DNA of 64,000 nt from Escherichia coli (GTDB lineage: Bacteria > Pseudomonadota > Gammaproteobacteria > Enterobacterales > Enterobacteriaceae), in the NCBI RefSeq assembly GCF_003334385.1, contig NZ_QOWN01000002.1; one strand, written 5' to 3'. Position numbers and translations under genes: made by a program. Below the pieces are notes generated by a model. The model was not told where the DNA came from and searched no databases. It saw nothing but the letters and a program-made list of their open reading frames with translations. This document shows, one piece after another, positions 1 through 24,385 of the stretch (the first letter of the stretch is position 1; the number at the start of each line of letters is the position of its first letter).

Positions 1-1
1 G

Positions 2-1027
2 ACCAATAATTATCTCGGTTTAACCTTTAATCATGATGCCATCAGCGAAGGTCAGGCCGCGTTAGCGGCCCAAGGTACCGGCACCACCGGTTCTCGTATG
101 GCAAACGGCAGTTATGCGCCGCACCTGGCGTTAGAGAAAGAGATTGCCGAGTTTTTCAATCGCCCTACCGCTATCGTTTTTTCAACCGGTTATACCGCTA
201 ATTTAGGCGTCATCAGCGCACTTGCCGACCATAACGCCGTGGTGTTACTGGATGCCGACAGCCACGCCAGTATTTATGACGCCTGTTCTCTCGGTGGCGC
301 GGAAATTATTCGTTTCCGCCATAACGATGCTAAAGATCTGGAACGGCGCATGGTTCGCCTCGGTGAACGGGCGAAAGAGGCGATTATCATCGTTGAGGGT
401 ATCTACAGCATGCTCGGTGACGTTGCGCCGTTAGCGGAAATTGTTGATATCAAACGTCGTCTCGGTGGTTATTTGATTGTCGATGAAGCGCATTCGTTTG
501 GCGTGTTAGGCGCAACGGGGCGCGGACTGGCTGAAGCTGTCGGCGTTGAAGATGATGTGGATATTATCGTTGGCACCTTCAGTAAAAGTCTGGCCTCGAT
601 TGGCGGTTTTGCTGTCGGTTCGGAAGCGATGGAAGTGCTGCGCTACGGCAGCCGCCCGTATATTTTTACCGCCTCTCCTTCTCCGTCCTGCATTGCGACC
701 GTGCGCTCGTCGTTAAGAACTATTGCCACACAACCAGAGCTGCGGCAAAAGCTGATGGATAATGCCAACCATCTGTATGGCGGTCTGCAAAAACTGGGTT
801 ATGAGTTAAGTTCACATATTAGCCCGGTAGTGCCGGTAATAATCGGTTCGAAAGAGGACGGTTTACGCATCTGGCGCGAGCTTATTTCGCTGGGCGTTTA
901 TGTGAATCTTATCCTGCCACCTGCCGCGCCTGCAGGCATCACGCTGCTGCGCTGTAGCGTAAACGCTGCTCACAGTCGTGAGCAAATCGATGCCATCATT
1001 CAGGCATTTGCTACTCTGAAGCAGTAA
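2..1027 (+). CDS. alpha-oxoamine synthase family PLP enzyme (BioF/Kbl/serine-palmitoyltransferase-like); 5' end lies outside the window
   Basis: The frame is open from nt 2 (TNNYLGLTFNHD...GTTGSRMANGSY), so the ATG at 98 is internal. Family motifs present: NNYLGL, DEAHSFGVLG and GTFSKSLASIGGF (putative PLP-lysine codon 584-586). Stop at 1025-1027. Confidence 0.85.
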   Translation, partial: TNNYLGLTFNHDAISEGQAALAAQGTGTTGSRMANGSYAPHLALEKEIAEFFNRPTAIVFSTGYTANLGVISALADHNAVVLLDADSHASIYDACSLGGAEIIRFRHNDAKDLERRMVRLGERAKEAIIIVEGIYSMLGDVAPLAEIVDIKRRLGGYLIVDEAHSFGVLGATGRGLAEAVGVEDDVDIIVGTFSKSLASIGGFAVGSEAMEVLRYGSRPYIFTASPSPSCIATVRSSLRTIATQPELRQKLMDNANHLYGGLQKLGYELSSHISPVVPVIIGSKEDGLRIWRELISLGVYVNLILPPAAPAGITLLRCSVNAAHSREQIDAIIQAFATLKQ

Positions 1028-1033
1028 TGTGAG

Positions 1034-1060
1034 CCCGCCGTGGTGTTGCGCCACGGCGGG
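1034..1060. terminator. GC-rich hairpin between convergent genes
   Basis: cccgccgtgg (1034-1043) and ccacggcggg (1051-1060) form a perfect 10-bp stem followed by ttt. It sits between the stop codons at 1027 (+) and 1062 (-). Confidence 0.6.
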
Positions 1061-1061
1061 T

Positions 1062-2141
1062 TTAATGTTGTCTGTCATACCAATACACCAGGCTCAACGC
1101 CACCAGCACAAACGCTATCGGTAAACCGAGCGCGGTAACAGGTGCGCTCAACGCAAATAGCAATCCCAGATTGACCATGATTTGATAGCTGATCCAGGTG
1201 AGTAAGCCAACGATGACACCTACAGCGAGACGGCTACCCATCCCTGGCGAGCGCGGGGCGCTAAAGGTAAACGGCACAGCCAGCAAAATCATCGCCAGGG
1301 TCAGGATGGGTTGCCCCAGTTTTTCCCACAGTGCAAGGCGGTATTCGCTGCTGGGTTGCCCGGTTTCCTGCAAATAATGGATGTAATGATTAAGCTGACG
1401 GACAGAAAAAGTATTGCCCGGCATTGATAACTCTTCAAGATCCATACTGGTGAAGGCCGATTGCCAGGCAAGATTATCTAATGTTTCCAGCGTTTCTTTG
1501 CCATTCAGCCATTTTTTATGATTCACACCATGCAGGATCCACGTTTTGTCGTCTTCAATGGTGGCACTGCGTGCATAAATGTAGGATTCGAGCGAGAGAT
1601 CGTCGCGATAATGAAAAATCTCCACGCCCACCGGCTGGCCCTGCTCGTTCAGCGATTTCACCGTCACAAATTCATTACCACGCCTGGCCCACAGCATATT
1701 GCCGGTAATGTCATCGTCCTCCCCCAACGCGGTGGCGGTCGATTTGATTTGCAACGCCTGTTGCTGTAATGGCGACGCTACCCACTCATCTATCGCGCCT
1801 AACGAAACAGTCCACAATATCCCTGCAACCAGCGCCACCAGTGCAATACGGAAGATAGAAAACCCCATGCTGCGAATGGCGGTAAGCTCACTGTTTTTCG
1901 ATAACTGCCCCAGGCCGACAATCCCTCCCAATAAGGCGATAAATGGCGAAAGTTCGACCAGTGTGCGCGGTAAGGTCATTAGCACCACCAGCACCGCCTG
2001 AGTCCAGCGATAACCGCCCGGGCTGACATCATCCAGTTCGTTAATCAGGTTGAAGGTGGTAAAAAGCGGCAGCAATAGCCCTGCGGCGGCGGCAAAACCG
2101 AGAAAGAGATGACGGATTAAATAGCGGCTGAAAACATTCAT
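1062..2141 (-). CDS. LptG-like permease (YjgP/YjgQ family), accessory paralogue
   Basis: ORF 1062..2222. The internal ATG at 2141 gives MNVFSRYLIRHLFLGF..., a typical YjgP/YjgQ N-terminus, and makes an ATGA start/stop overlap with the upstream gene (2138-2141). Multiple hydrophobic segments flank a central soluble domain (WARRGNEFVTVKSL...WILHGV). Confidence 0.8.
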   Translation of the reverse strand: MNVFSRYLIRHLFLGFAAAAGLLLPLFTTFNLINELDDVSPGGYRWTQAVLVVLMTLPRTLVELSPFIALLGGIVGLGQLSKNSELTAIRSMGFSIFRIALVALVAGILWTVSLGAIDEWVASPLQQQALQIKSTATALGEDDDITGNMLWARRGNEFVTVKSLNEQGQPVGVEIFHYRDDLSLESYIYARSATIEDDKTWILHGVNHKKWLNGKETLETLDNLAWQSAFTSMDLEELSMPGNTFSVRQLNHYIHYLQETGQPSSEYRLALWEKLGQPILTLAMILLAVPFTFSAPRSPGMGSRLAVGVIVGLLTWISYQIMVNLGLLFALSAPVTALGLPIAFVLVALSLVYWYDRQH

Positions 2142-3208
2142 CGGGAAAATTTCTGCAGCAAAGAGAAGTCGCGTGCGACCAGCATCAGCAGGCCCATTAG
2201 CATGAGTCCGGGTACTAACCACAAACCAGGAATGAGGGGAATCGCGCCGTTAGCCACCAGCGTACGGCAGACGTCACCGCCATAAAAAATGGCAATAAAC
2301 AGCAACGTCAGTGGCAATAACGTTGAAAATCGCCCTTGCCGCGGTTTTACCCGACTTAATGAAATGGCCAGCAGCGCCATCAACAATGCGGTCAGGCCAC
2401 GGCTTTGCCGCCATTGCAGTTCGGCATGATCGGCTGGAAAGACGGAGCGCGCCAGCTCCGTGACCGATTTCGCTTTGCGTTTGACGTTAGGGCTTTGATC
2501 CAGCGGATTCAGATGTAATTGCAGATTACGGTAGATCTGTTCGTTGTCATCACGCCCCTGATGATCGATAAGATAGGCAGTGCCGTTGTGCAACATAACG
2601 GTCGGTTTCTCGGGTGATGGGTCAACCACATCAACCGAACGGGCGCGGAAAATGCGGGTTCGATTGGCAGTAGAAGTATAAATCAGCGCGTCAGTCAGGC
2701 GATTATTATCCTGATCAACCGTCTGCGAAAGGATCATTCGTCCGTTATCGTTAGTGTTAAATTTCTTTGCCCGCAACTGGCGAACATCCAGCTCCGACTG
2801 CGACTGCTGCTCCAGTTGATAAATCTGCGCATAAGCCCACGGACGACCATACATCGACAGAAGGGTGACAAAAATACTTAGCGGTATCGCCAGATAAAGA
2901 ACGGCTTTGTACAAGCGTCCCGGACTGCCCCCCGCCGCAGAGATAGCGGTAATTTCCGAGTCGGTATACATCTGCCCTAGCGTCACGCCAACTGACACAT
3001 ACAGACCAACAGGTAACAACATCTCCAGTGCAATCAGTACTTTGTAGAAAACGATATCCAGCACAACATCAAGAGCTAATGTCCCATTTGCCGCTTCGGT
3101 CAGATAACGCTGTGCGGAGTAGCTGGCGAAAATAAAGATCAGAAAACCGACGATAATCAGCACCAGACGGCGCGTACCACGCATGATGTAGTGTTCAACC
3201 AGCTTCAT
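2138..3208 (-). CDS. LptF-like permease (YjgP/YjgQ family), accessory paralogue
   Basis: 356-aa ORF with ATG at 3206-3208. The N-terminus MKLVEHYIMRGTRRLVLIIVGFLIFIF and the topology (3 TM, soluble domain, 3 TM) resemble LptF/LptG. It is translationally coupled to the next gene. Confidence 0.8.
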   Translation of the reverse strand: MKLVEHYIMRGTRRLVLIIVGFLIFIFASYSAQRYLTEAANGTLALDVVLDIVFYKVLIALEMLLPVGLYVSVGVTLGQMYTDSEITAISAAGGSPGRLYKAVLYLAIPLSIFVTLLSMYGRPWAYAQIYQLEQQSQSELDVRQLRAKKFNTNDNGRMILSQTVDQDNNRLTDALIYTSTANRTRIFRARSVDVVDPSPEKPTVMLHNGTAYLIDHQGRDDNEQIYRNLQLHLNPLDQSPNVKRKAKSVTELARSVFPADHAELQWRQSRGLTALLMALLAISLSRVKPRQGRFSTLLPLTLLFIAIFYGGDVCRTLVANGAIPLIPGLWLVPGLMLMGLLMLVARDFSLLQKFSR

Positions 3209-3238
3209 CTCACTAACGCCCTCAATCCTTTGAGTTTT

Positions 3239-3802
3239 TTATTCATTGATCAGTTTCTGCGCCAACGCAATGACATGATCTACCTCTTCCGGCGTCAGGC
3301 TGCCGTCCTTTGCCCACTGAATTTGCCCGGCTTTATTCAGCACCAGAATGGTTGAACTCTGCTCCGGCAAGCGCCAGGCAACGCGTCCCTGTCCATTGCC
3401 GTCAATAACGAATTGCGCCCACGGATAGCGGCGTTTATTTTTTTCGATTTTGCCAACAACAAAATAGCCAGTACCAAAGATGGCATCATCGGTGTTCACA
3501 ATGGTGGTGGGCTGAAAACGATCCTGCGGAAAGTTTGCCGCTTCAACCGCTTTAATTAACAGTGAGTTCTTTTTCTTCGCCGACTTACGCCCGGCGATAT
3601 ACTGAATAATGCGGACTTTTCCCGCTAATTGTGTGCTGTTCCACTTTTGGTAGTGAATTTCGTCGTCGCTATTCAGAAGCAGCTCGCCGCCTTCCTGGAT
3701 ATAAACAGGGGTAACCGTTTTGCCAGTGACGAAATTGTGTGCCTGCACACCCGGGGCTAAGAGCATGATAATCAACGCAATAATCAAACGAGATGACATC
3801 AT
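3239..3802 (-). CDS. YtfJ/HI0045-family periplasmic protein (signal peptide)
   Basis: 187-aa ORF. The N-terminal signal-like sequence is MMSSRLIIALIIMLLAPGVQA-HN. A GGAG Shine-Dalgarno lies upstream of the ATGATG start. Similarity to E. coli YtfJ is recognised by eye, not by search. Confidence 0.65.
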   Translation of the reverse strand: MMSSRLIIALIIMLLAPGVQAHNFVTGKTVTPVYIQEGGELLLNSDDEIHYQKWNSTQLAGKVRIIQYIAGRKSAKKKNSLLIKAVEAANFPQDRFQPTTIVNTDDAIFGTGYFVVGKIEKNKRRYPWAQFVIDGNGQGRVAWRLPEQSSTILVLNKAGQIQWAKDGSLTPEEVDHVIALAQKLINE

Positions 3803-3810
3803 TGCTCCGG

Positions 3811-4635
3811 CTATAGCGGAAAACGCGAAATCAGCAGCTCTAAGCGCTGACGAATATCGCTATCCAGCGCCACCGGTGCATCATACGACTGGCGGTTTTC
3901 CATATCATCCGCCACCATGTCGTCGTGTTTATCTCCCATCAGGCCATTAATGGCGGCGAGGAAGCGGGATATCTGTAACGCCTCTTTATTTTCAGGATCA
4001 AGCGATCTTAAGGTGTCGTAATAAGAAACCTGCTGGCTGATGATTTTTCGCACATCATGAAATTCCCTACCGGTTAGTCGCGGTTTGGCAATAATCTCTT
4101 TCAGGGTATGCATTTGCTTTTGCCGATAGGCAATAAAACTGCTTACGCTTTCTAACTGGCTATGGCGTAATGAATAGTTCACCAACGACCAGACCGGAGA
4201 GCTTAAATAAATCCGTAACAGGTTGCCGTAATACGACACAATATTTTTCTTACCGTTACGAAAGCCGTCCTGAAAACGCCCCAGAAAAACGGTCGTTTTG
4301 CCGAATAAAAATCCGGCCTGATGCTTCTTTAAATACAGCCGTTGCGCAAAACGCAGGTGCTTGTAGCGCGCTCGCATGTATTTAAATTGTTTGCGCTCAT
4401 CAGCAGTCAGCTCATCGCCTTTGGCTTGTTTGCGAACTAAACGCAGTAACTCCTGACGATCAACGCCATTGAGCCAGAATTGCAGGCATAACGCGTAATT
4501 ATCATGAATGATTTCGGTGGTACAACTTAGTGCAATAGTCGGCGGCAAACTAACCTGTGCATCAACGACATCATCTTCTTCAATCGCAACAAATAGACGC
4601 TCGCTCGCCTCAAGCGGGAAATATTTTCTCATCAT
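3811..4635 (-). CDS. hypothetical cytoplasmic protein (274 aa), no family recognised
   Basis: Long ORF in an operon context. Its ATG overlaps the yghQ stop by 1 nt (TGATGATG at about 4630-4637). No TM segment or signal peptide is visible. Confidence 0.7.
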   Translation of the reverse strand: MMRKYFPLEASERLFVAIEEDDVVDAQVSLPPTIALSCTTEIIHDNYALCLQFWLNGVDRQELLRLVRKQAKGDELTADERKQFKYMRARYKHLRFAQRLYLKKHQAGFLFGKTTVFLGRFQDGFRNGKKNIVSYYGNLLRIYLSSPVWSLVNYSLRHSQLESVSSFIAYRQKQMHTLKEIIAKPRLTGREFHDVRKIISQQVSYYDTLRSLDPENKEALQISRFLAAINGLMGDKHDDMVADDMENRQSYDAPVALDSDIRQRLELLISRFPL

Positions 4636-5984
4636 CAGGATTTCTCTCCGGCTGCGTTATAAAGCAAGGAATGGCGCTGAAAAAATGCCTTTAAGGTTGG
4701 AATTAACGAGAGCGCCACGTCCAGACATTGCCCACCGAAGTAAGCAAACGCTGCTCCCAGCACACCAAACAGATGACAGAACATGAACAGCAATACGATG
4801 TAGCCGATTGAGGCGATGGTTTGCGCCACGAGAAAAGCGCGCTGTTTTCCCGCCATCAATAGCAATGACTCCTGAGGGAAGCCCAGCATCGAAATCACAA
4901 TTGCGCCCAGCATCACCTGAATCAGGTCATACGCTTCGAGATACTTAACGCCAAACACCAGCGAAATGAGCGGCTTGCCGACGATCAACACCGCGAGCGC
5001 CACCAGAATACCGATTCCGCCCGCCAGTAAACCGGACTTCACACCTAACAACCACGGTCTGGTGGTGCGCGGATCTAAACGCATCACCTCTGGGTAAAAA
5101 CTTTTACCCAGCAAACCCGCTGGCGTTCCGGCGGCGTCGAAGAATGTCATGGCGATTTTAAATAACCCGGCGGCAGCGGGTCCTAACACGATCCCCACCA
5201 ACACTGTGCTGCACGAGTTACGCGCCGACCAGATGGAGTGGGCAATGTTGGTTGACCAGACAAAACTCCACGCGCCTTTAATGTATCGGGCAGACTCAAA
5301 CAGATTCAATTTGAAGGCGTTATGGATATTTCGGCGGCGTAATTCGCGCGCGGCAAACCACCAGTACATGGTGCCGCCAACCAGATTCGACACGTACCAG
5401 GCAATAACAAAACCCGCAAAACCAAAGTCAAAATACCAGGCTACGACGCTCCCCGCTGCGCGCAGAAAAGGTTTCGTCGCCTGCTGTACAGCAATTAAAT
5501 CGAAGCGATCTACCGCACGCAGAATGCCGGTCGGCGTGGAGGAAGCCATTGAAGGAATGAGCGTGCAATAGAGCGCTGCCAGCCAAAAACTTTGGTCATC
5601 CAGACCTAATGAATGGGAAAGGAATGGCAGTAAGGCAATGCCACCGACAATCGCCACCGCGCCGCTGACGATATCCAGCGAGAAGGAAAATGAGACGACA
5701 TTGCGGAATTGCTGCGGATTATTGTTGGTTAATGCTGGTGTTCCGTACTGAACCACCAGTTGCCATGTCTGAAACTTAATAAAATCGCTGATCGACTTGG
5801 CGTACGATTGCACAATCACCAGTACGCCAAACATGGCGGGCGTCATCCCTTTACCGGCACACGAGAGCGCCAACAGACCCAGCAAGGCGCTCACGACATT
5901 ACTGGAGCCTAACCAGGCGCTATTGCGAATAATGGTGCGAAACGCGCCATCTGCAAACCAATGTTTGATGTTAAAACCCGCCAA
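4635..5984 (-). CDS. yghQ: inner-membrane MOP/PST-type (Wzx-like) flippase family protein YghQ, full length
   Basis: 449-aa polytopic membrane ORF whose C-terminal part I recognise as K-12 YghQ. The first codon at 5982-5984 is TTG, with AGG about 6 nt upstream. Confidence 0.8.
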   Translation of the reverse strand: MAGFNIKHWFADGAFRTIIRNSAWLGSSNVVSALLGLLALSCAGKGMTPAMFGVLVIVQSYAKSISDFIKFQTWQLVVQYGTPALTNNNPQQFRNVVSFSFSLDIVSGAVAIVGGIALLPFLSHSLGLDDQSFWLAALYCTLIPSMASSTPTGILRAVDRFDLIAVQQATKPFLRAAGSVVAWYFDFGFAGFVIAWYVSNLVGGTMYWWFAARELRRRNIHNAFKLNLFESARYIKGAWSFVWSTNIAHSIWSARNSCSTVLVGIVLGPAAAGLFKIAMTFFDAAGTPAGLLGKSFYPEVMRLDPRTTRPWLLGVKSGLLAGGIGILVALAVLIVGKPLISLVFGVKYLEAYDLIQVMLGAIVISMLGFPQESLLLMAGKQRAFLVAQTIASIGYIVLLFMFCHLFGVLGAAFAYFGGQCLDVALSLIPTLKAFFQRHSLLYNAAGEKS

Positions 5985-6029: not shown

Positions 6030-6788
6030 TTAAGTTAAACTTCGGCGGTCAGAAACGATGGCAACCAGAGAAACCGCCTTCTGTGCCTGTTCCAGCACTT
6101 CGCTGTAGGGCGCTCTGGAATCAATCTCAAGAATTTTTGTGCCGTTATAGCCAATCTTCGACATGACACCGATTTTGTCCTGCAGCTCGGCATAGTCATG
6201 GTCAGGCTTGCGGGAGATGGCAGTCTCAATATCAATGCCCAGGCGAATAATTAATTCCGGGCGATATTGCGCCATTTGTTGGTATAAACGCCGTTCGCGC
6301 TGCGCCAGAAACATGCTGATTTTCCCGGTCGCACGTTCGACGCCAATCCCCGGTCCATCATAATAAAAGCCCGAAATTTCAGCCTGCGGGAAGCGATCGC
6401 TGACCACCAGAACGCCACTTTGCGCCAGTCGCTGAACCTTGCGTAGATTCGCCATTCTTCGCAGCGAGAAGCAGTACATAATCACCGCCGCCCATAGCGC
6501 CGGAGATTTGGTTTTCATGCTTTGGGTTTTCGAGGATTTGGCCGCCAGTCGCCGTTCCAGCCAGACGCCAACCAACGGCAATCGTTTGATTTTGTCGCCG
6601 TCTTCGCCGGAGAGCAGCCCCAGATAGCGCCGCTCGGTTTGCCAGTGTTGTTGCAGCGATTTCACCAGGTCGGTGGTCAGTGTGGATTTACCGGTGCCAT
6701 CACACCCGACCACCGCAATCAGCCCCGGAATGTAGTTGGGCTGCGGCGCGGTTGTACTATTAACAGTTTGAGTTTGTAGTGCATCCAT
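6030..6788 (-). CDS. yghR: P-loop NTP-binding protein YghR
   Basis: 252 aa. Walker A VGCDGTGKSTL, then SDRFPQ and SRKPDH motifs. Paralogous to the next two genes. Confidence 0.9.
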   Translation of the reverse strand: MDALQTQTVNSTTAPQPNYIPGLIAVVGCDGTGKSTLTTDLVKSLQQHWQTERRYLGLLSGEDGDKIKRLPLVGVWLERRLAAKSSKTQSMKTKSPALWAAVIMYCFSLRRMANLRKVQRLAQSGVLVVSDRFPQAEISGFYYDGPGIGVERATGKISMFLAQRERRLYQQMAQYRPELIIRLGIDIETAISRKPDHDYAELQDKIGVMSKIGYNGTKILEIDSRAPYSEVLEQAQKAVSLVAIVSDRRSLT

Positions 6789-6819: not shown

Positions 6820-7533
6820 TCAGGAAAGCGCGGCGTGAATTGCGCGTAGTGACGCTTGCAGAATTTCATCGGCGGGGTGTCGCCCATCCAGTTCAAGGAT
6901 CTTTGCGCCATTGAATGTCAGTTGCGGCGTAACGGCGATTTTTTCCTGTAACGCTGCCAGTTGGTGGTCAGGTTTACGCGCAAACGCGGTTTGTTCATCA
7001 ATGCCAAGACGAATCAACAATACGGGCAAATAAGATGCCATCCATTGGTACAGCTTCAGCTCGCGCTGCCTTAACATTTTTATCCAACCGTTACCGCCCG
7101 TGGTTTTTGCCAATTGCGGGCCATCAAAGCGAAACCCCGGCACTTCAACCTGCGGGTAGCGGTCGGTGATGAGCAGAAAGCCTTGCTGGCTTTTACACAA
7201 CATTTTGCGAAACTTGTACGCCCGCCAGCAGGAAAGCAGATAGATAACCAGTGCAGTAATATTGCCAGGCGGTGTTGAGGGCTTTTCGTGCACATGTGCC
7301 GCTTTACTTCGCAGATAACGCCCAAAAGGTGCGCCAATAACAGGGAGCTGTGAAATCCATTCGCCAATTCGCCCGGACGATTGCCCGAGATAAATGTGTT
7401 CTGTTGGCATTCTTGCTGCCAGTTCATTTACCAGGCTTGCCGTGAGGGTCGATTTACCTGAACCATCACATCCTACAATGGCAATAACACGCACTGGCGT
7501 GGAATTAATTATTGACATATTACGTTGATTCAC
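6820..7533 (-). CDS. yghS: P-loop NTP-binding protein YghS
   Basis: 237 aa with a GTG start at 7531-7533. Walker A VGCDGSGKSTL, then TDRYPQ and ARKPDH motifs. Confidence 0.9.
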   Translation of the reverse strand: MNQRNMSIINSTPVRVIAIVGCDGSGKSTLTASLVNELAARMPTEHIYLGQSSGRIGEWISQLPVIGAPFGRYLRSKAAHVHEKPSTPPGNITALVIYLLSCWRAYKFRKMLCKSQQGFLLITDRYPQVEVPGFRFDGPQLAKTTGGNGWIKMLRQRELKLYQWMASYLPVLLIRLGIDEQTAFARKPDHQLAALQEKIAVTPQLTFNGAKILELDGRHPADEILQASLRAIHAALS

Positions 7534-24188: not shown

Positions 24189-24385
24189 AACGCCTTATCC
24201 GCCTACAAACGCATGAAGATTCAACATGTTGCAATAGATTTTGTAGGCCTGATAAGCGTAGCGCATCAGGCATTGAGCACCTAATGCCGGATGCGTCGTG
24301 AACGCCTTATCCGGCCTACAAACGCACGAAGATTCAACATGTTGCAATAGATTTTGTAGGCCTGATGAGCGTAGCGCATCAGGCA
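24189..24385. repeat. BIME-like REP cluster containing a direct duplication of about 84 bp
   Basis: Copy 1 (24189-24272) and copy 2 (24301-24385) of aacgccttatccg(g)cctacaaacgca(t/c)gaagattcaacatgttgcaatagattttgtaggcctgat(a/g)agcgtagcgcatcaggca. Each copy has inverted REP arms. Another REP (gccggatgcg) lies between them. Confidence 0.85.

Follow-up and report, generated by a model that had tools for sequence, protein, structure and literature searches.

Which enzyme is encoded by the open reading frame that runs into the left edge of a 64 000-nucleotide stretch of Escherichia coli DNA (contig NZ_QOWN01000002.1 of assembly GCF_003334385.1; the whole stretch is hereafter called the window), and what place does such a gene have in a species that already carries bioF and kbl? 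A sequence-only reading of the window had taken it for an α-oxoamine synthase resembling serine palmitoyltransferase (SPT) rather than BioF or Kbl. The frame is open and unbroken over 341 residues from the window edge and closes with a TAA stop at 1025–1027 (translation of 2–1030, + strand). We are highly confident that it represents the 3′ 88% of E. coli spt, the gene of a serine palmitoyltransferase of the alpha/beta/gamma-proteobacterial (‘Rhodobacteria’) type, which acts together with the acyl carrier protein AcpR as the first enzyme of a sphingolipid cluster. Based on its translation, the NF047599 family model, the RefSeq label and the identity with the gene of strain BL21(DE3), the feature at 2..1027 (+) comprises the C-terminal 341 of 390 codons and the stop. 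The finding is not new, as the gene is already labelled ‘spt: serine palmitoyltransferase’ in RefSeq and its product has already been assayed. Identity, family placement, catalytic residues, gene context and distribution were determined here, while the activity and the preference for acyl-AcpR are taken from the literature on the BL21(DE3) protein.

Family placement of the spt product

Family membership was judged from curated hidden Markov model (HMM) cutoffs and from a ranking of PDB entries, and both favour SPT; in a phylogeny the protein would be expected inside the SPT clade of the Nitrosomonas/Caulobacter type. With NF047599, the SPT equivalog model of the beta-proteobacterial type (cutoff 500), the window fragment scored 546 bits (E = 3.8e-164) and the full-length product 599 bits. 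The full-length product stayed below the cutoffs of the models for BioF (TIGR00858, 333 vs 426 bits), Kbl (NF005394, 297 vs 460; TIGR01822, 248 vs 493), CqsA (NF005526, 222 vs 428) and ALAS (TIGR01821, 219 vs 339), and also below that of the alpha-type SPT model NF047603 (428 vs 670). PF00155, which describes the fold-type-I, pyridoxal phosphate (PLP)-dependent α-oxoamine synthase family, matched with 175.7 bits over residues 44–385. In the PDB ranking of the full-length protein the SPTs of Sphingomonas paucimobilis and Sphingomonas wittichii came first with 372–375 bits, followed by the SPT of S. multivorum (264), cysteate-C-fatty acyltransferase (205), Kbl (185–204), BioF (∼175), ALAS (158–171) and CqsA (125). 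Likewise, a four-way alignment gave 47% identity to the S. paucimobilis SPT, compared with 29% to E. coli BioF and 31% to E. coli Kbl. Judged from these scores (546 bits to the SPT equivalog, 375 bits to a solved SPT), the match to motif and family is not due to chance. The SPT-like rather than BioF/Kbl-like character of the protein, first proposed from its active-site strings, was thus borne out by the family cutoffs and by the published assay described below.

Active-site residues and motif strings

The two active-site strings and the lysine codon at 584–586, on which the sequence-only reading was founded, were recovered by translation and coordinate mapping exactly as it had given them. The spt translation contains LIVDEAHSFGVLGATGRG and IIVGTFSKSLASIGGFAVG, which lie in the 341-residue fragment together with the stretches IVDEAHSFGVLG and IVGTFSKSLASIGGF. 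In the alignment, Asp210 and His213 of the DEAHSFGVLG motif (482..511, +) correspond to Asp231 and His234 of the S. paucimobilis SPT, which bind PLP. The GTFSKSLASIGGF motif (572..610, +) carries the Schiff-base lysine, Lys244 (codon 584–586), whose counterparts in the alignment are PLP-binding Lys265 of the S. paucimobilis SPT and Lys236 of E. coli BioF. His137 (codon 263..265, +), located inside the string ADSHASI, corresponds by alignment and residue mapping to His159, the histidine that is stacked on the PLP ring, its role being known from the structures of the S. paucimobilis enzyme. In the LPPAAPAGITLLR loop (914..952, +), Arg366 is conserved and corresponds to Arg390, the carboxylate-binding arginine. 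Lys244, His137, Asp210, His213 and Arg366 therefore match Lys265, His159, Asp231, His234 and Arg390, respectively, of the S. paucimobilis SPT.

Two further positions differ from that enzyme. Thr78 (codon 86–88) is found at the position of Asn100, and Leu354 (codon 914–916), in the same loop as Arg366, at that of Arg378, a residue in contact with the serine carboxylate in the crystal structures. Leu354 was considered as a sign of altered substrate binding and rejected, since Leu, Pro, Met, Ile or Val stands at this position in every non-Sphingomonas relative aligned, including those of the Caulobacteraceae. Leucine is the rule in all SPTs of the beta, gamma and Caulobacter type that were aligned, and the Sphingomonas enzyme is the exception.

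The strings that had been given for comparison were largely accurate. The S. paucimobilis SPT indeed reads VDEAHSMG and GTFSKS, Kbl reads VDDSHAVG and GTLGKA, and BioF reads VDDAHG; the second BioF string is the exception, E. coli BioF having VTFGKGF and not GTLSKA. As evidence that discriminates between the families, however, the strings failed. Among relatives retrieved from 185 579 species genomes, DEAHS and GTFSKSL were invariant in all those above the NF047599 cutoff, whereas relatives best matching the Bacteroidetes-type SPT model read DDAH[SG] and GTFSKSF, and Ignavibacteria relatives best matching bioF read DDAHG and GTFSKALG. Use of the strings alone as a classifier was therefore rejected, because GTFSK occurs also in BioF-like proteins and DEAHS is the mark of a single SPT clade. 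As far as sequence comparison goes, the two strings are a good hint for this clade, suggestive but not diagnostic, and because they do not discriminate by themselves the assignment to SPT is carried by the whole-length profile scores and the gene context.

Gene context in complete genomes

Many complete E. coli chromosomes match positions 1–4000 of the window with 100% identity, and 4157 of 5426 complete genomes contain the region. From the chromosomes that are identical over this region the full gene could be recovered; it has 390 codons, the first 49 of which lie to the left of the window edge, in agreement with the earlier estimate of ∼340 C-terminal codons within the window. Directly upstream of it lie genes for a fatty acyl-AMP ligase, a reductase and an acyl carrier protein. 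The gene order in E. coli C and BL21(DE3) is glcC, yghO (−), fatty acyl-AMP ligase, NAD-dependent epimerase/dehydratase-family reductase, acyl carrier protein, spt, lptG (−), lptF (−), YtfJ-family gene (−), hypothetical gene (−), yghQ-like gene (−), yghR (−), yghS (−), yghT (+) and pitB. In these two strains and in the identical genomes the acyl carrier protein gene (acpR) ends where spt starts. This aasR-epi-acpR context is taken from other genomes, the three genes lying outside the window, and the acpR/aasR arrangement next to spt was kept in ∼40 fetched loci. No bio genes and no tdh were found near spt in the loci from complete genomes.

At least 80% of the 13 kb yghO–yghT cluster was detected in 4052 of the 5426 complete E. 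coli genomes (∼75%), with 96–100% identity. In K-12 MG1655, however, only an IS5 element stands between yghO and a truncated yghQ, the intervening genes being gone, and the K-12 reference strain is thus a deletion mutant of the spt cluster. The gene looks ‘extra’ when compared with the K-12 reference because IS5 has replaced the locus there. It had been called a third, accessory member of its family, next to bioF and kbl elsewhere in the genome; bioF (b0776) and kbl (b3617) are indeed located elsewhere in K-12, and spt is missing from that strain, but a gene present in more than 4000 complete genomes is not rare. The element itself, IS5LO at 3 130 146–3 131 340 of K-12 MG1655, replaces aasR-epi-acpR-spt-lptG2-lptF2-ytfJ-like-hyp274 and the 5′ part of yghQ, corresponding to the region upstream of the window together with window positions 1 to ∼5700.

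Identity with the assayed enzyme and proposed reaction

The window fragment and ECD_02854 of BL21(DE3) (WP_000524970.1) are identical at 340 of 341 residues, the sole difference being D309G, and the whole window is collinear with the BL21(DE3) chromosome at 99.6–99.7% DNA identity. ECD_02854 was cloned, along with the neighbouring genes ECD_02853 (acpR) and ECD_02851 (aasR), by Padilla-Gomez et al. (2022; PMC9386255), who found that AcpR(Ec) bears 4′-phosphopantetheine and that co-expression of AasR(Ec), AcpR(Ec) and SPT(Ec) leads to 3-oxo-sphinganine in vivo. Extracts containing SPT(Ec) converted L-[14C]serine into 3-oxo-sphinganine, and palmitoyl-AcpR was a far better substrate than palmitoyl-CoA or palmitoyl-AcpP (PMC9386255). 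An assay with serine, one of the checks to which the sequence-only reading had pointed, is thus already published, for a protein that shares all but one residue with the window fragment. In the same study ECD_02852 was judged likely to encode the reductase and yghO/ECD_02850 likely to encode the N-acyltransferase; earlier reviews cited there had already noted that E. coli B strains carry spt (PMC9386255).

With these assignments, the reaction would begin with the formation of an external aldimine from L-serine and the PLP held on Lys244, and a decarboxylative Claisen condensation with a long-chain acyl thioester would then yield 3-oxo-sphinganine (3-ketodihydrosphingosine) and CO2. The preferred acyl donor is acylated AcpR, encoded by the gene directly upstream, and not acyl-CoA, and AcpR is loaded by AasR as a dedicated acyl-acyl carrier protein synthetase. 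The gene belongs to a conserved chromosomal cluster of 13 genes between glcC and pitB, in which yghO is predicted to encode an N-acyltransferase or ceramide synthase. For E. coli, we infer the steps after 3-oxo-sphinganine, a role of LptF2 and LptG2 in export and the mature lipid: the cluster would make a ceramide-based lipid, and an LptB-powered LptF2G2 transporter may export it to the outer membrane.

Several observations weigh against the assignment of the window gene to a sphingolipid-producing SPT. The E. coli assays were performed with crude extracts, relied on co-migration in thin-layer chromatography (TLC) and used the Caulobacter AcpR as carrier in vitro, and no sphingoid compounds were detected in BL21(DE3) carrying empty vectors in complex medium (PMC9386255). 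By the latter result, native expression and a native product are putative. Neither kinetic constants nor an amino-acid specificity panel for the E. coli enzyme, nor any report of a sphingolipid from wild-type E. coli, was found in the literature searched. Furthermore, the D309G exchange separates the protein in the window from the assayed one, and codons 1–49 of its gene are outside the window.

Conservation of the cluster and alternative explanations

The lack of sphingoid lipids in empty-vector BL21(DE3) in complex medium (PMC9386255) could also mean that the enzyme is competent but that its cluster survives in E. coli as a silent remnant of evolution, without a physiological role. It would agree with such an explanation that K-12 lost the locus via IS5 without obvious harm, that about one-quarter of the complete genomes are without most of the cluster, and that the locus has a degraded appearance in some Shigella and E. 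coli, perhaps due to assembly quality. A decaying cluster, however, would not be expected to be kept as this one is, with at least 80% of its 13 kb in 4052 of the 5426 complete genomes at 96–100% identity. Nor would it show the low ratio of non-synonymous to synonymous substitution rates (dN/dS) of ∼0.03 obtained for spt when E. coli was compared with E. ruysiae or E. whittamii, an ungapped estimate usable for Escherichia only, as the other genera were dS-saturated and the Pseudomonas comparison was out of register. Moreover, a co-location matrix in which 13 E. coli cluster proteins were searched by tblastn against 77 fetched loci showed all 13 genes to be co-located in ∼35 Enterobacterales species even where their order is reshuffled, in genera including Escherichia, Citrobacter, Pseudocitrobacter, Hafnia, Sodalis, Serratia, Mangrovibacter, Pluralibacter, Pantoea and Rosenbergiella. 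The Pseudomonas loci retain yghO-aasR-epi-acpR-spt together with lptG2 and lptF2. By these substitution and distribution data spt is kept by selection rather than being in decay; retention, dN/dS and co-location together point to purifying selection for a function used outside laboratory conditions, and we consider a silent remnant unlikely.

Low tblastn identities of the cluster proteins (40–70%, below the within-species expectation) were recorded in two Shigella flexneri loci (L047 and L078) and in E. coli ECMA0423 (L063). These values suggest either frameshift-ridden assemblies or pseudogenization of the Shigella locus.

A second explanation keeps the α-oxoamine synthase reaction but assumes other native substrates, for example an amino acid other than serine or an AcpR-bound acyl chain of an unusual kind, so that a non-canonical long-chain base would be formed. 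The E. coli enzyme was assayed only with serine and palmitoyl thioesters and a TLC co-migration readout, and a relaxed substrate specificity of these SPTs has been discussed (PMC9386255); the accessory genes of the enterobacterial loci (yghR, yghS, yghT, the ytfJ-like gene and the gene of a 274-amino-acid protein) also differ from the Caulobacter genes cpgABC, so that the end product likely differs. Against this stand the labelling by L-[14C]serine of a compound co-migrating with 3-oxo-sphinganine (PMC9386255), the score above the curated SPT equivalog cutoff and the active-site strings common to characterized SPTs, and we regard other native substrates as very improbable. That the gene could be a redundant BioF- or Kbl-like paralog with uninformative SPT motifs, as the GTFSK (within GTFSKALG) of L064 and L065, proteins with bioF as their best model, and the single fold and shared catalytic residues of the family might suggest, is effectively refuted by scores below the bioF (333/426 bits) and Kbl (297/460) cutoffs but well above that of the SPT model, by identities of 29% and 31% as opposed to 47% to the S. 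paucimobilis SPT, by neighbours that are acpR, aasR, a reductase and an N-acyltransferase instead of bio or tdh genes, and by the published SPT activity (PMC9386255).

The assignment to a serine palmitoyltransferase that works with AcpR thus being preferred, its value lies in what it points to: a complete set of 13 clustered genes for sphingolipid synthesis and export is kept, under strong purifying selection, by most E. coli from nature and by many other Enterobacterales, and K-12 is without it. A search of the literature revealed no native product or phenotype of the cluster for E. coli. Tentatively, and with more doubt than belief, we suggest that wild E. coli under non-laboratory conditions might carry in its outer membrane a sphingolipid of new structure, for which LptB-F2G2 would be the dedicated exporter and which would have been overlooked because K-12 had deleted the locus. 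In other species bacterial sphingolipids affect the outer-membrane barrier, polymyxin sensitivity and host signalling, and a native E. coli sphingolipid, if true, would for this reason matter for envelope biology and host interaction.

Neighbouring genes in the window

Convergent to spt, and in accordance with its earlier description as a neighbour of lipid-transport-type genes, lie lptG2 (1062..2141, −) and lptF2 (2138..3208, −), encoding diverged paralogs of the LptG- and LptF-family permeases. With 308 bits to TIGR04408 and 318 bits to TIGR04407, respectively, the two products score above the NCBIfam LptG and LptF equivalog cutoffs despite their identities of only 28% to K-12 LptG and 29% to K-12 LptF. 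In view of this divergence, RefSeq probably over-annotates these sphingolipid-locus paralogs in calling each an ‘LPS export ABC transporter permease’.

Only 34 bp separate spt from lptG2. A GC-rich, terminator-like hairpin was detected between the two convergent genes (1030..1064, +), with a stem of 16 pairs, 10 of them G-C; it matches the consensus only, and by this consensus scan it could work as a bidirectional terminator.

Further downstream follow a gene for a YtfJ-family protein (3239..3802, −; TIGR01626/PF09695), which co-travels with spt in Enterobacterales, and a gene for a 274-amino-acid protein (3811..4635, −), which co-travels with spt in the co-location matrix and whose product gave no match in NCBIfam, Pfam or the PDB. 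The full-length yghQ (4635..5984, −), truncated by IS5 in K-12, encodes a flippase-like protein of the MOP superfamily (PF01943/PF13440). Three genes, yghR (6030–6788, −), yghS (6820–7533, −) and yghT (7707–8399, +), encode dTMP kinase-like P-loop proteins that score below the family cutoffs; YghS had no match in the PDB. At 24189–24385 of the window, reciprocal megablast matches between the window and BL21(DE3) revealed an inverted pair of ∼85 bp copies with 96% identity, which are probably REP-type intergenic repeats near yghA/exbD.

Comparison with known systems

With E. coli BioF and Kbl the spt product shares the α-oxoamine synthase fold and the catalytic His/Asp/His/Lys/Arg set, but it differs from them in its strings, which are DDAHGTG and TFGKGF in BioF and DDSHAVG and GTLGKA in Kbl. 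The Sphingomonas SPTs (PDB 2JG2 and 2W8J, S. paucimobilis; 2X8U, S. wittichii), which represent the soluble homodimeric bacterial SPT fold, have the DEAHS and GTFSKS strings in common with the E. coli protein. Unlike the S. paucimobilis enzyme, the E. coli protein has Leu for Arg378 and Thr for Asn100, and it fits NF047599 and not NF047603. In S. wittichii an acyl carrier protein gene also adjoins spt (PMC9386255).

The locus of Caulobacter crescentus (CC_1152–CC_1168) comprises spt, acpR, aasR, cerR/epi, bCerS/aca, lptF2, lptG2, lptC2 and cpgABC. It includes second copies of LptF, LptG and LptC (PMC11324152; bioRxiv 10.64898/2026.04.12.717747). Caulobacter LptF2 and LptG2 form a complex, bind the single LptB and are deletable only without spt; they are implicated in sphingolipid export, and the locus of E. 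coli UTI89 has been drawn as homologous (bioRxiv 10.64898/2026.04.12.717747). Common to the E. coli and Caulobacter loci are the five ceramide-synthesis gene types, the LptF2/LptG2 paralogs and a gene for a MOP-type flippase (PMC9386255; PMC11324152; bioRxiv 10.64898/2026.04.12.717747). Caulobacter CpgB is an LCB5-domain lipid kinase (PMC9393093). Unlike the Caulobacter locus, the window carries neither a cpgB-type (LCB5-domain) ceramide kinase nor lptC2, and E. coli has instead the three dTMP kinase-like P-loop proteins, the YtfJ-family protein and the 274-amino-acid protein. Because of these differences in gene content, the mature E. coli lipid is probably not ceramide phosphoglycerate. As the accessory genes are not the Caulobacter cpgABC head-group enzymes, its structure is not predictable from homology, and the YtfJ-like protein, the 274-amino-acid protein, YghQ and YghR, YghS and YghT may define an uncharacterized lipid modification.

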